Position numbers and translations under genes: made by a program. From a virus (Duplodnaviria > Heunggongvirae > Uroviricota > Caudoviricetes): a DNA stretch of 24,793 bases. The DNA is taken from the IMG/VR virus record IMGVR_UViG_2740892230_000034; one strand, 5' to 3'. The notes under the pieces are model-generated. The model saw only the letters and a program-made list of their open reading frames with translations. It did no database searches and was not told the origin of the DNA. Each line of letters opens with the position of its first letter. The stretch's first letter is position 1. Of the stretch, positions 7,981 to 11,618 are shown in pieces.

Positions 7981-8151
7981 CTGGGCATTAGCTCTTTCCT
8001 CTCTCAGGCTTTTAGCCAGTCGCTGCACAATCGCAGAGTTGATAGAAATTCCATCCATTTCAGCAACACGTCTAATCTCCTCCTTCATTCGCGCTGGCAA
8101 ACGAAGCTGGAAACTTTGACTTTTACGACCTGTGTAAAGCACATCTTTCAT
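7978..8151 (-). CDS. arc: Arc-like ribbon-helix-helix repressor (57 aa)
   Basis: MKDVLYTGRKSQSFQLRLPARMKEEIRRVAEMDGISINSAIVQRLAKSL, an RHH fold pattern (beta strand FQLRLP then two helices). Shine-Dalgarno GGGAGA 7 nt upstream of ATG 8149-8151. First gene of the minus-strand arc-ant operon. Confidence 0.8.
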   Translation of the reverse strand: MKDVLYTGRKSQSFQLRLPARMKEEIRRVAEMDGISINSAIVQRLAKSLREERANAQ

Positions 8152-8262
8152 AAGTAATTCTCCCACAATGATACCAACTTGGTTCTAGAACCAATTTAAC
8201 ACCATTTATTTTGATGTCAAGTTGGTGCTATTGTTTAGCGAACATCTTTACGTTGAGGTCAT
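8152..8262. promoter_or_regulatory. Divergent promoter/operator region between arc and the mnt-like gene, with a 16-bp perfect palindrome
   Basis: TTGGTTCTAGAACCAA at 8179-8194 is a perfect palindrome. A second 8-bp inverted pair is CCAACTTG (8174-8181) / CAAGTTGG (8218-8225). Confidence 0.55.
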
Positions 8263-8583
8263 ATGAGCAAGTTCCCTAGTCATGAAATGGATAGGTTCAA
8301 TATCAGGCTTCCTGCAGGAATGCGGGATGCTATAGCTGAACGAGCCAAACGTAACGGCAGATCAATGAACTCAGAGATTGTTCAGATACTGGAAGATGCC
8401 TTGAATGCAGAAAATACACTCGGGGAAATAGCAGATAAAATCAACAGCGTCTCGGTTCCGCTAAATGTTGATGCGCTAGTTCAACTTCAAGCCCAGGTTA
8501 TCGCCATGCAAAAAGAAATACAGGAAAAGTTCAGAGAGCAGAACGAAAAGTTGAGAGAACTGCTAAACAAAAAAACCACCTGA
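8263..8583 (+). CDS. Mnt-like ribbon-helix-helix repressor with C-terminal coiled coil (106 aa)
   Basis: FNIRLPAGMRDAIAERAKRNGRSMNSEIVQILEDAL closely resembles the P22 Mnt DNA-binding domain as I recall it (FNFRMPMEVREKLKFRAEANGRSMNSELLQIVQDAL), and the protein ends KKTT. It is divergent from arc, which is the P22 mnt position. Confidence 0.8.
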   Translation: MSKFPSHEMDRFNIRLPAGMRDAIAERAKRNGRSMNSEIVQILEDALNAENTLGEIADKINSVSVPLNVDALVQLQAQVIAMQKEIQEKFREQNEKLRELLNKKTT

Positions 8584-8606
8584 CGGTGGGTTAATTTTTG
8601 CCTTTT
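8573..8606 (+). terminator. Possible intrinsic terminator after the mnt-like gene
   Basis: Short stem CCACC (8576-8580) / GGTGG (8585-8589) with loop TGAC, followed by TTAATTTTTGCCTTTTTT. Confidence 0.4.
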
Positions 8607-8616
8607 TTGGACCATA

Positions 8617-8645
8617 TTGACTACTCATAAAATGAGATCAATATT
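8617..8645 (+). promoter_or_regulatory. Candidate sigma70 promoter for the YjzC-like gene, with an operator-like palindrome in the spacer
   Basis: TTGACT (8617-8622), a 17-bp spacer containing CTCAT-AAA-ATGAG (8624-8636), then a weak -10 AATATT (8640-8645). Confidence 0.35.
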
Positions 8646-8681
8646 TAATCGCCCAATAACGGGTGCATGTTGAGGTATATC

Positions 8682-8861
8682 ATGGCGAAAAAACCAGGTG
8701 AAAACACAGGAAAAAACGGCGGAATATACCAAGAAGTTGGCCCGCGCGGAGGTAAGAAAGACAATTTTGCCACCGTCAAGGACAACGAAAGGCTTCCGCC
8801 AACAACAAAGCCAGGTCATGGCTGGGTATTAGATAAGCGAACTCCAGACAGCAAAAAGTAA
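8682..8861 (+). CDS. Small YjzC-like protein (59 aa), function unknown
   Basis: MAKKPGENTGKNGGIYQEVGPRGGKKDNFATVKDNERLPPTTKPGHGWVLDKRTPDSKK. The pattern G-x-Y-x-E-V-G...P...W resembles the YjzC-like small protein family (from memory). Shine-Dalgarno GAGGT 5 nt upstream; own terminator downstream. Confidence 0.65.
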   Translation: MAKKPGENTGKNGGIYQEVGPRGGKKDNFATVKDNERLPPTTKPGHGWVLDKRTPDSKK

Positions 8862-8867
8862 TAATCA

Positions 8868-8890
8868 AGCCGGGTCACTCCGGCTTTTTG
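8868..8890. terminator. Bidirectional intrinsic terminator shared by the convergent YjzC-like and HExxH genes
   Basis: Stem AGCCGG (8868-8873) / CCGGCT (8880-8885) with loop GTCACT, followed by TTTTT. The minus-strand stop codon (8875-8877) lies in the loop. Confidence 0.7.
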
Positions 8891-9240
8891 ATATGTCGCT
8901 CGCAGAACTCAACAAGCCTGCTCATTAAGTAGCAGTAAGTCTCGTTGGCTCTTCCTGGTTCAACATCAACGCCGACCCTTGAGCAGATATCGAATGCCAT
9001 GTGAGCGCACTCATGGGCAATAGTAGATAGTTTACCATTGAACACACCTATCACATGCAAAACACCATTCTCGCTGCTCATTGTATGAGACGCTCCGTTG
9101 GCATCCGAGTCCTGCACGTCCACGCCAAGTTTTTGATGCAGGCGTTGCCATTCTGGAAAGTCTCTGCAAAACACAATTGTACCGCTCTCAAAGAGCGGAA
9201 CGAGCATTTTTGGTACGTTTCCAATGTTAACTTTTTTCAT
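8875..9240 (-). CDS. Hypothetical HExxH-motif protein (121 aa), possibly a minimal zincin-like metallopeptidase
   Basis: MKKVNIGNVPKMLVPLFESGTIVFCRDFPEWQRLHQKLG...KLSTIAHECAHMAFDICSRVGVDVEPGRANETYCY... contains HECAH with a Glu about 20 residues downstream. Shine-Dalgarno AGGA upstream of ATG 9238-9240. No confident family assignment. Confidence 0.6.
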   Translation of the reverse strand: MKKVNIGNVPKMLVPLFESGTIVFCRDFPEWQRLHQKLGVDVQDSDANGASHTMSSENGVLHVIGVFNGKLSTIAHECAHMAFDICSRVGVDVEPGRANETYCYLMSRLVEFCERHIKKPE

Positions 9241-9270
9241 GGTATCCTGCTCAAAACTAAGGAGGTTGGT

Positions 9271-9498
9271 GTGAAGCGATGGTTCCTCATAATTACTGTT
9301 TTCGCGATCATTTACACTATTTTCCCTGCATTAAAAGCACCAATGCAAATAATTTCACTAGCAATAATTTCGATTAGTGCTTTCATTGCAGTAGCCGTAC
9401 TTGTGTTTAAGGTTTTAAAGTTTTTAGTTTGGCTATCAAAAGATGATGGATGCAAAGTTCATCAAGAAAAAGAAGGCAAAATAACCAAAGTTGACTAA
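9271..9498 (+). CDS. Small hydrophobic membrane protein (75 aa, about 2 predicted transmembrane helices)
   Basis: Strong Shine-Dalgarno AAGGAGG (9259-9265) 5 nt upstream of GTG 9271. VKRWFLIITVFAIIYTIFPALKAPMQIISLAIISISAFIAVAVLVFKVLKFLVWLSKDDG... Its stop overlaps the stop of the convergent gp16-like gene. Confidence 0.5.
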   Translation: MKRWFLIITVFAIIYTIFPALKAPMQIISLAIISISAFIAVAVLVFKVLKFLVWLSKDDGCKVHQEKEGKITKVD

Positions 9499-11618
9499 CT
9501 GTCACTAGCGAGCCATGTAATAATCCCCGTGCGGGCAATGGTTTTTGCTTCATCTGTTGATAAGGTTTTCTCCCATCTCTTAAATGCCCCAGATTGCATC
9601 AGTTTCCTTTCTATTGCGCGTCTCACTTCTGCTCTGTCTACTGGTGCGTTTTGCAGGCGAAATAGCATTGATTTAAACTCAGGAGAAGATAGCAGAGCAT
9701 CAGCAGCCTTTATCCTGCTTGTTTTCCCTGACATCAATGCAGACGTTATCACCCCTGTTGCACCTACACCAGGGAGACCAGATAAGCTTGTAATACCTTC
9801 CGCCGCAGCAGCTTTTGAGGCTATTCCATAAATTTTTGCGAGACTACCCTTTTCTTTCAGAAAGTTATTAACTTGCTGATCCACAAGACTACTAGCATAC
9901 TGCTTACCAGTATTGAGTCTATTCATAGCCTTAGCTGCTTGATAAATCGTATCAAGGCGCTTTGATGCATCTGTGCCAATAGCATCACGGAGAGCCTTCA
10001 TATTGGCCCCATTGCGTGACATTCCGTTATACCATTTTACAAATCCATCAACTCCTAATTGCTGACCAGGTGATTTGGCATAGCTGGTAAATGCTTTATT
10101 CATTGAGGTGAGCGCAACTTCCTGCCGCATATCCTTTGGAATCGACTTCATTAATTGCCTAAAGTCGCCACCGTTTCCTTTTGCCATATTAACAACAGCA
10201 CTTTCAACTTTTGGAATTGCTGATTGCTGAAGTTTTCTACCCAAGACGGTTACAGCATCATCTTCAATGGATTTTCGTTTTTTTACCAACTCCTTACCAA
10301 GCGTCCATAATTCCCCTGCGCCATATTTTTCTGCGACAGCCTGTTGGTCATCTGTTATGGCTGCATATAACTTTTTAAGAACACCTGTTTCTTCATCCTT
10401 GAATGGACCAGAGCCTTTGCCAATAGCTTGTCCAACCTGCTTTCTAGCGAGATCTAAACGCCCATACGTTGGCAAGGTGTTTGGATCAAGTCGGTTCAAT
10501 GTCCGCTTCATTATTGGAGATAATTCATCAATTCCACCTATGTCATCAGCAAAATCCTCTAAAAAATTCAATGTATTAGTTGCCTCAATCCGGTCTCTTA
10601 CAGGAACCTTTTCGGCAATTTTGTTGTAGATGTTATCTGACTGATTTTGTAATGATGAAATGGTTTTATCAAAATTATCTGCAAGCCTGTCAGAAACCAG
10701 TTGCTTATCAAGGCTTCCCCCAAATGAAGTTATCATTTCATCAGCTTTTCTTCCTAATTCAGTAATAAAACGCTTATGCGCCTCACTAATCTCTGTTCCA
10801 GGGAGACTTGCCACTGCATTATCAAGAGCCCTGACAGCAGGATTATTAGAGATCATGCCTGGAGTGGCATAATTTTCCAGTTCTAGCTCACGAATAGCAT
10901 TTATCGCGTTAAAATCAGGATTAACTTCATCGGCGAAATCTTGAATAGCTCGTTGCCCGCCGATAAATTTATTGTCCATTGCGCCAGCAGCTTTCTTTAA
11001 CGTTGCTTTAGATGATTTACTACCCATCCCTACGGATGAGCGATAAATATCTCCGGCACTATTTTTAATTTTTCCTGCAATCTTCCCAAGCGCTGGACCA
11101 ACAATCTCGGCTACAGGGCCAGCCACAGCGCCAATAGCAGCGCCGGAAGCAACATCGCTATTTGTTCCATTGGCTACAATAGCCCCTTCTCCAGCACCAA
11201 GCCCTGCGGCGGCAGCCAGCCTTGCCGCCCCTTTCGGAACCTGAGAAATAATCCCACCACCACTAACAAATGGCGCTGCTTGTCCAACGAACTCACCAAC
11301 ATCTTGTGCGGTTGATGGTTTTGCCGCTAACTTCTGCTGTAGAGACTGAATTGCGGCTTGCTCTTCTGGTGTCATGTCCTGAAACAGGCCAACACCTTTA
11401 CCAACATCCATCAATCCACTGAGAACGCCATACATAAAACGGTCGAAGCCGTTAGCATTATTAACAACATTTTCCTGTCTGGAATTTTCCTCTAGTGAAA
11501 CCAAAGGAGATTGCTGCTGTTCTGGTTGTGCATCAAGCACAAAGCCATCAGGAAGCTGTGAGTTATCAGGCTGATTATCGAGAACAAATCCTTCGGGTAA
11601 ACCTACATCGGTTGCCAT
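9495..11618 (-). CDS. Ejection (injection) protein, P22 gp16-like (707 aa)
   Basis: Last of three consecutive ejection-protein genes in conserved P22-like order. Ala/Gly-rich with a long open frame; overlaps the upstream gene end. Confidence 0.8.

Follow-up and report, generated by a model that had tools for sequence, protein, structure and literature searches.

Gene content of the interval and its relation to P22 and HK620

The virus record IMGVR_UViG_2740892230_000034, a stretch of 24,793 nucleotides that was analysed as a whole (hereafter the window), was identified as a P22-like prophage of Escherichia coli 55989 (100% identity), with integration by tRNA-Arg and intS. Between its mnt-like repressor gene and the gene for a gp16-type ejection protein of 707 amino acids (aa) lie three small open reading frames (ORFs), namely ORF1 (orf59a), ORF2 (hkcC) and ORF3 (orf75), which are presented here together with a conserved 29-bp junction between the last two (Table 1). 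The region is the variable "ant moron" of P22-like phages (Villafane et al., 2008; PMC2629481) and in P22 it carries sieA, the gene of an inner-membrane injection blocker (Leavitt et al., 2024; PMC10883804). We propose, with a probability of roughly 0.6, that two independent units make up the interval as a mosaic within the ant moron, the sieA slot being held by orf75 as an exclusion candidate. Unit 1 would be the orf59a/hkcC segment (8567-9273), common to P22 and HK620, and Unit 2 would be the gene in the sieA slot, here orf75.

The DNA of the first segment presented 97.3% identity with phage P22, and this identity breaks off 2 nt into the GTG codon that opens sieA in P22 and orf75 in the window. 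Concerning the mnt genes, that of P22 and the 106-aa mnt-like gene have only their final ~17 nt in common. At the protein level, HkcC is 100% identical to hkcC of HK620 and to an unannotated P22 ORF, and Orf59a has a 98% identity with P22 orf59a and with HK620 HkcD. P22 holds orf59a, hkcC and sieA together; HK620 holds orf59a (HkcD), hkcC and hkcB. The terminator and the overall layout of HK620 are also like those of the window, but the slot contains hkcB (109 aa, cassette family 1) in the former and orf75 in the latter. Judging from these identities, two of the three genes are already named (orf59a and hkcC), although uncharacterised; hkcB, hkcC and HkcD of HK620 and orf59a of P22 are ant moron genes without known function (AF335538; annotation of Clark et al., 2001). 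In P22, hkcC corresponds to an ORF without annotation in the classical records, placed with the t_mnt terminator on one side and the putative PsieA promoter on the other. The hairpin at 8576-8589 corresponds to tMNT of the HK620 annotation, upstream of HkcD, and the one at 8867-8886, labelled t_mnt in P22 and tORF59A in HK620, overlaps the last codons of hkcC (KKPE). The promoter-like site at 8617-8645 is kept in P22 and SE1, and promoter matches of its grade (9/12) were seen three times here, against 2.7 expected from shuffled sequence.

All three ORFs are genuine genes and not chance ORFs, because orf59a has 108 homologues, hkcC has 550 representatives and more than 1,100 blocks of the collection bear an intact orf75. 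RefSeq also annotates the three coding sequences in E. coli 55989, as hypothetical proteins (EC55989_RS13390, RS13395, and RS13400). A first-pass annotation, made from the window alone, had described proteins of 59, 121, and 75 aa on the plus, minus, and plus strand, an HExxH motif in the second, two hydrophobic segments and an AAGGAGG site for the third, and 30 bp between the divergent start codons of hkcC and orf75. Sequence and RefSeq bear this description out: the HExxH is HECAH (residues 76-80), the hydrophobic segments lie at residues 5-23 and 27-45, AAGGAGG is found at 9259-9265 and the spacer is exactly 30 bp (9241-9270). The same annotation rightly recognized a YjzC-like protein in orf59a, a known moron hotspot in the interval, and three genes without a structural role; their proteins also have no characterised function. 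Of the expression signals it had credited to orf59a, the terminator at 8867-8886 stands, but the promoter at 8617-8645 belongs to a class of matches that occur at chance frequency. The alternating orientation was seen as well; it reflects two transcription programmes, since gp16, hkcC, arc, ant and the tailspike gene share the late-operon strand and mnt, orf59a, and orf75 share the opposite one.

The central proposal of the first-pass annotation was that the trio stands in the position of sieA and may be one undescribed superinfection-exclusion, defence or toxin-antidote module. The three genes are indeed compact, lie in a known moron hotspot, have divergent starts 30 bp apart and include none with a known function. 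However, P22 has hkcC and orf59a in addition to sieA, and HK620 has them in addition to hkcB, so that the sieA position applies to orf75 only. Among 12 sampled junction loci with orf75, six have hkcC and orf59a upstream and six have other genes, and the pair is missing from all five loci of the commonest orf75 allele; phages EC.P3 and E212 exemplify orf75 without hkcC/orf59a, beside the 707-aa gp16 type. Additionally, the 30-bp shared stretch is a generic junction with at least 12 right-hand and at least eight left-hand gene types, and PADLOC matched neither ORF1 nor ORF2, its best value for orf75 being E = 0.068. A single three-gene module is therefore very improbable. The sequence comparison argues that a module replacing sieA is refuted and that the interval comprises two independent units, because orf75 is found both with and without hkcC/orf59a and always abuts the 707-aa gp16 type. 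The comparison across P22-like phages that the first-pass annotation had recommended leads to the same result, as orf59a and hkcC are also present in P22 and HK620 and the slot gene is swapped separately, leaving the trio inconstant. What survives of its exclusion proposal concerns orf75, for which such a role is reasonable, in the sieA slot and behind the sequence that precedes sieA, and not the trio. Finally, the profile searches and structure predictions that it had advised linked orf59a to YjzC, placed HkcC in an HExxH...E family and gave only phrog_7294 for orf75.

TABLE 1. Features of the interval and of its two flanking genes (window coordinates).
Feature	Position	Strand	Evidence or remark
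mnt-like Arc-family repressor gene, 106 aa	8263..8583	+	Pfam Arc, E = 1.6e-20; left neighbour, outside the trio
Hairpin CCACCTGACGGTGG across the mnt stop codon	8576..8589	+	Terminator-like scan; weaker hairpin than 8867-8886
Promoter-like TTGACT-17-AATATT 5' of orf59a	8617..8645	+	9/12 match
ORF1 = orf59a (P22) = HkcD (HK620), 59 aa	8682..8861	+	98% identity
Bidirectional terminator: strong hairpin and T-run after ORF1	8867..8886	.	Terminator-like scan
ORF2 = hkcC, 121 aa, HECAH at residues 76-80	8875..9240	-	ORF list, homology
Conserved 29-bp junction GGTATCCTGCTCAAAACTAAGGAGGTTGG	9241..9269	.	Exact match in at least 120 IMG/VR contigs
ORF3 = orf75, 75 aa, GTG start, two transmembrane segments	9271..9498	+	ORF list, hydropathy, phrog_7294 (E = 1e-47)
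707-aa gp16-type ejection protein gene (type G2)	9495..11618	-	Constant right-hand neighbour of orf75

The zincin-like protein HkcC and its YjzC-like neighbour

A profile search with HkcC among 1.84 billion representatives matched 550 of them at E ≤ 1e-3 and 144 at E ≤ 1e-10. The family members are stand-alone proteins, nearly all 105-140 aa long and matching over their full length. An alignment of 64 members (22-43% identity) has no invariant columns other than H76, E77, H80, and E100. Pfam returned nothing for these 64 members, and PADLOC and NCBIfam returned nothing meaningful for HkcC. The AlphaFold2 model (predicted local distance difference test, pLDDT, of 89) has the order beta-beta-alpha-beta-beta-alpha(HExxH)-alpha(E100), in which the HExxH lies on helix 71-88 straight after a beta-hairpin and E100, exactly 20 residues past H80, opens helix 100-116. 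Gluzincins, such as the thermolysin-like enzymes and the minigluzincins, combine an HExxH with a downstream Glu. Typically, their HExxH also sits on a helix after the edge strand of a beta-sheet, their Glu also follows the second His by 20 residues at the start of the next helix, and their minimal forms are also stand-alone proteins of ~120 aa. We call HkcC zincin-like because its predicted secondary-structure order and its 20-residue His-Glu spacing resemble these features, and it is probably a metal-dependent hydrolase or peptidase, with no named peptidase family assigned. It is improbable that any ORF of the interval is functionless; for HkcC this would mean that catalysis has been lost and only a structural role remains, a view favored by the lack of a significant match to any solved peptidase, but the HExxH...E as sole invariant columns in 64 members is the signature of a maintained active site. 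This signature appears to be new within the searchable literature.

The orientation of hkcC is that of the late structural genes in the window, in P22, in HK620 and in siphovirus-type prophages of Klebsiella, Rosenbergiella, Xenorhabdus and Proteus, and for this reason late expression by read-through is the parsimonious expectation. Thus hkcC would be expressed in lytic growth through late-operon read-through, and its product would be small and cytoplasmic, with a metal site of the zincin type. A minus-strand promoter-like GTGACA-16-TATTTT (9/12) was also noticed at 9478-9505, on the gp16/orf75 overlap, which could drive hkcC without the late operon, although such matches occur at chance frequency.

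Further copies of the family were encountered during the survey. A second HkcC paralogue (~38-40% identity) is located elsewhere in the genomes of many P22-like and lambdoid phages, among them L, MG40, g341c, PS3, PS119, SE1, and ST160. In the species-genome loci L135-L139, the paralogue is established just upstream of terminase-like genes, without orf59a, and some genomes bear both copies. In two metagenomic loci (L129 and L130), the HkcC homologue adjoins a 212-aa ORF of PF18894, "putative phage metallopeptidase"; in L135, from Kluyvera, an ORF of 212 aa also stands beside HkcC, and its assignment to PF18894 is assumed from the identical length and position. In these three loci, two HExxH proteins appear to lie side by side. 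Kinship of HkcC with PF18894 (PhageMetallopep) was rejected, as hhalign with the L135 ORF found nothing beyond the HExxH motif.

Regarding orf59a, its score against the Pfam YjzC family (PF14168) is sub-threshold (19.4 bits with a gathering cut-off of 25, E = 0.0013), but homologues at 41-53% identity carry PF14168 and several sources name closer ones "YjzC family protein". It shares with that family, which has no known function, a length of ~60 aa and conserved Gly and Pro residues; the invariant residues are G6, G14, G20, P21, R22, G23, and P39. AlphaFold2 gave a confident three-stranded beta mini-fold (pLDDT 86.7). Comparison of this predicted structure yielded no structural match, and PADLOC and NCBIfam gave nothing meaningful. 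The gene encodes a YjzC-family mini-protein on the strand opposite to hkcC, both genes ending at one shared bidirectional terminator.

Synteny raises the question of whether hkcC and orf59a form a functional pair, for example a late metallopeptidase that removes or processes a YjzC-like protein expressed in the lysogen, or two mutual inhibitors. A locus search with the closer HkcC alignment gave 11 loci. At HkcC identities of 43-64%, the convergent arrangement, with a gap of 5-30 nt and a common terminator, is met again in widely differing contexts, namely in the podovirus ant moron, in the tail operons of siphoviruses from Klebsiella, Rosenbergiella, Xenorhabdus, and Proteus, in a prophage of Pasteurellaceae and in a metagenome. 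In Proteus the pair stands beside an mnt/ant set in the tail operon, which suggests a larger ant moron unit moving as a block. In our IMG/VR sample orf59a accompanies hkcC in 31 of 35 hkcC-positive loci and is never found alone, and the two proteins vary in step in their pairwise identities (r = 0.92 for 15 pairs), although these pairs are drawn from only six non-independent loci. On the other side, orf59a is missing beside more distant HkcC relatives (38-55% identity), whether these lie near terminase genes or not, and in prophages of Salmonella bongori and in environmental contigs the YjzC-like homologues (68-73% identity) stand alone. No HExxH neighbour was found for the YjzC genes of Firmicute phages or for the solitary proteobacterial loci. 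The pairing is not obligate, and we consider a functional bond between the two proteins possible but doubtful.

A shared junction and an exchangeable slot

The window contains a single copy of the junction GGTATCCTGCNCAAAACTAAGGAGGTTGG (9241-9269); by chance, 0 matches would be expected. Reading rightward, it supplies a Shine-Dalgarno (SD) sequence, AAGGAGG, 5 nt ahead of the GTG of orf75; reading leftward, it supplies the AGGA of hkcC (9245-9248). In the IMG/VR contigs (at least 120 exact matches) a GTG is nearly always established one base past the junction, and the ORFs behind it belong to at least 12 unrelated families of 62-164 aa. Among the matches listed, these are SieA type A (7 loci), HK620 hkcB and its relatives (21 loci), the SE1-type 109-aa protein (16 loci), a 129-aa protein with a signal peptide (28 loci), orf75 (12 loci), a 62-aa protein with two transmembrane (TM) segments (12 loci), a YobH-like protein (2 loci) and five more families. 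An N-terminal hydrophobic, TM- or signal-like segment is present in 11 of the 12 families listed; nine of these exceed the hydropathy threshold, and in families 1 and 9 the segment was recognised by eye. The left flank is variable as well (at least eight types), nearly always ending with CAT, the start codon of the leftward gene, to which the junction gives its AGGA ribosome-binding site on the other strand.

These data fit a scheme in which different P22-like phages place different small envelope-protein genes behind the junction, which would carry the ribosome-binding sites of both divergent genes and a probable extended -10 promoter. The candidate for the latter is TGgTATCCT (9240-9248), a possible extended -10 read by eye. 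If it is genuine, the conserved segment would be a portable promoter, SD sequence and start codon. In P22, the 85 bp upstream of sieA, including the junction, are sufficient for exclusion (PMC10883804).

On the right-hand side, many cassettes are closed by the palindrome AGCCATCC(A/G)TGGC, ~17 nt ahead of the stop codon of gene 16; the window lacks this palindrome. In the IMG/VR loci, TAGCCATCC(A/G)TGGC ends the unrelated cassette families 2, 4, 6, 7, 9, and 11, and variants of it end families 5 and 8. The palindrome marks a conserved right boundary, the counterpart of the 29-bp left junction, and may be either a recombination joint or a small hairpin. Additionally, six IMG/VR loci (L027, L031, L034, L053, L067, and L088), but not the window, bear a hydrophobic micro-ORF of 21-22 codons (MVTVGWIIAFLIAFWVGRHWL or MVTVGWIIVALLVALWAKNRYY) located 26-32 nt past the cassette stop and provided with a GGAG site. 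Antisense to gene 16 of the G2 or G5 type, it extends into the 3' end of that gene and could be either the gene of a small membrane peptide or a chance ORF.

Within the searchable literature, a slot delimited by the junction and filled by many unrelated envelope proteins, orf75 included, appears to be new. It has been reported that only 22 of 66 P22-like phages have sieA (PMC10883804), and many of those lacking it present another small membrane or secreted protein at the same position, behind the same junction.

orf75 as a candidate exclusion protein

Hydropathy and sequence analysis of orf75 predict a short basic N-terminus, a first TM segment at ~5-21, a five-residue loop (KAPMQ), a long second TM segment and a charged tail. 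It would be a two-helix protein of the inner membrane (N-in/C-in) whose charged C-terminal tail is conserved. The last 40 residues are invariant among the alleles and the first TM segment is variable. All homologues are at least 83% identical and are confined to E. coli and Salmonella, the gene being present in 34 of 5,426 complete E. coli genomes, and its GC content is 34%, against 45% for the window. Its only family match, phrog_7294 (E = 1e-47), has no assigned function, and nothing was matched in Pfam, NCBIfam or PADLOC. In all cases the stop codon of orf75 overlaps that of gp16 by 4 nt, and the adjoining gp16 is of type G2 in 12/12 junction loci and 5/5 loci of the main allele. This commonest allele, which starts with MKQW, has copies in more than 1,100 blocks, those of Salmonella Kentucky among them. 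Neither the junction nor hkcC accompanies it, and it is the last gene of an mnt-orf92-orf186-orf75 operon, with its own GGGAGG site. Because the main allele ends an mnt operon, orf75 is on the strand of the prophage repressor in both contexts.

Concerning its function, orf75 would be made in the lysogen and would obstruct the gp16/gp20 DNA-delivery conduit of incoming P22-like phages at the inner membrane, as a minimal functional analogue of SieA. To our knowledge, no system for blocking DNA injection by short-tailed phages has been studied other than SieA. Like the sieA of P22 (types A, B, and C), orf75 occupies the slot between gene 16 and the immI genes. Both genes have their place between the homologues of genes 16 and 9, run against the late operon and have the junction and the GTG position in common, and the product of orf75, like SieA, would be an inner-membrane protein of a P22-like prophage. 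Small two-TM injection blockers occur in other phages as well; HK97 gp15 (cited in PMC10883804) and T4 Imm reportedly block DNA entry at the inner membrane, the former being a prophage moron product. orf75 would resemble these two in size, topology and expression logic only, and has no detectable homology with them. Because of position, strand and membrane location, we tentatively rate a SieA-like role, as an inner-membrane exclusion factor of the lysogen, as the single likeliest function of orf75.

Several observations weigh against this role. SieA proteins have at least 164 aa, and that of P22 shows four hydrophobic segments under the hydropathy criterion that finds two in the 75 aa of orf75; the SieA motif FxRYPxEAxxFNK is missing from the 75-aa sequence. 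Homology with SieA was rejected by hhalign (probability of 0.4% with P22 SieA, three aligned columns). With a periplasmic loop of ~5 residues, orf75 could make only minimal contact with the part of the conduit that lies in the periplasm, and two TM segments with a charged tail are just as compatible with a class II holin or a membrane toxin. The tie between orf75 and the G2-type gp16 may be purely physical, because the stop codons overlap; palindrome-bounded cassettes (families 4, 6, and 8) shuffle among gp16 types, and the SieA proteins of P22 and HS1 are not gp16-type specific (PMC10883804). The promoter scan did not flag the candidate extended -10 at 9240-9248. Lastly, dN/dS values of 0.14-1.5 on 18 substitutions at most are weak evidence of constraint. 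A cognate specificity between cassette and gp16 type was also considered as a candidate, and it is weakened by cassettes found with several gp16 types and by the breadth of SieA.

A somewhat less likely alternative, which we regard as doubtful, is that orf75 is a membrane-active effector (abortive infection or a holin-like toxin) or a lysogenic-conversion factor modulating a host membrane protein. Its two TM segments with a charged cytoplasmic tail are the architecture of class II holins (65-95 aa) and of small membrane toxins, the periplasmic loop is very short, PADLOC detected a weak likeness to a "4TM effector" (E = 0.068), and the slot also holds a secreted 129-aa protein and YobH-like proteins, not necessarily exclusion factors. 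Unlike class II holins, however, orf75 lies outside the lysis cassette, between gp16 and immI and on the strand opposite to the late operon. In the operon of its main allele it would share a transcript with the mnt repressor gene, and since this implies constitutive expression in lysogens, a lethal pore would be hard to tolerate; moreover, it occupies the slot, behind the junction, of sieA, a proven exclusion gene. The improbable case of a functionless ORF, already discussed for HkcC, would make orf75 a decaying remnant. Its alleles show few synonymous changes and one pair has a dN/dS above 1, but the gene is intact, with the C-terminal 40 residues invariant in all alleles and a strong SD sequence in two contexts, across more than 1,100 blocks. 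A broader version of the exclusion role, which we consider rather unlikely, is that the junction is a self-contained expression head where P22-like prophages swap unrelated small envelope proteins as an exclusion arsenal against diverse ejection proteins. If so, orf75 would be the smallest member of that arsenal, a 75-residue hairpin jamming the inner-membrane conduit of the 707-aa gp16 type, and the two thirds of P22-like phages "lacking sieA" would be explained.

Outside the interval, the immI-like region (5887-8583) is unusually rich. It bears three Arc/Mnt-type ribbon-helix-helix genes, namely RS13360 (RefSeq; 85 aa, approximately 5971-6225, within the ORF at 5887-6225), 7978-8166 (minus strand), and 8263-8583 (plus strand). 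Two antirepressor-like genes are located at 6461-7240 and 7278-7988 (both on the minus strand, the latter with a P22AR C-terminal domain), and an ORF of 73 aa at 6240-6461 (minus strand). The acyltransferase-family gene that RefSeq annotates at ~1875-3785 (plus strand), with intS on one side and the tailspike gene on the other, probably serves lysogenic conversion by modifying the O-antigen. No known RNA family reached its gathering threshold in the window.

For the biology of temperate phages, HkcC stands as the founding member of a large HExxH...E family of ~120 aa, outside Pfam and located in the late operons of many of them, whose substrate, once defined, could reveal a new late-stage phage function. 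As for the P22-like phages, the slot proteins provide a concrete list of candidate exclusion proteins, orf75 included, to which the established single-copy insertion assay of sieA is applicable, and they could be used to probe how gp16 and gp20 build the trans-envelope channel.

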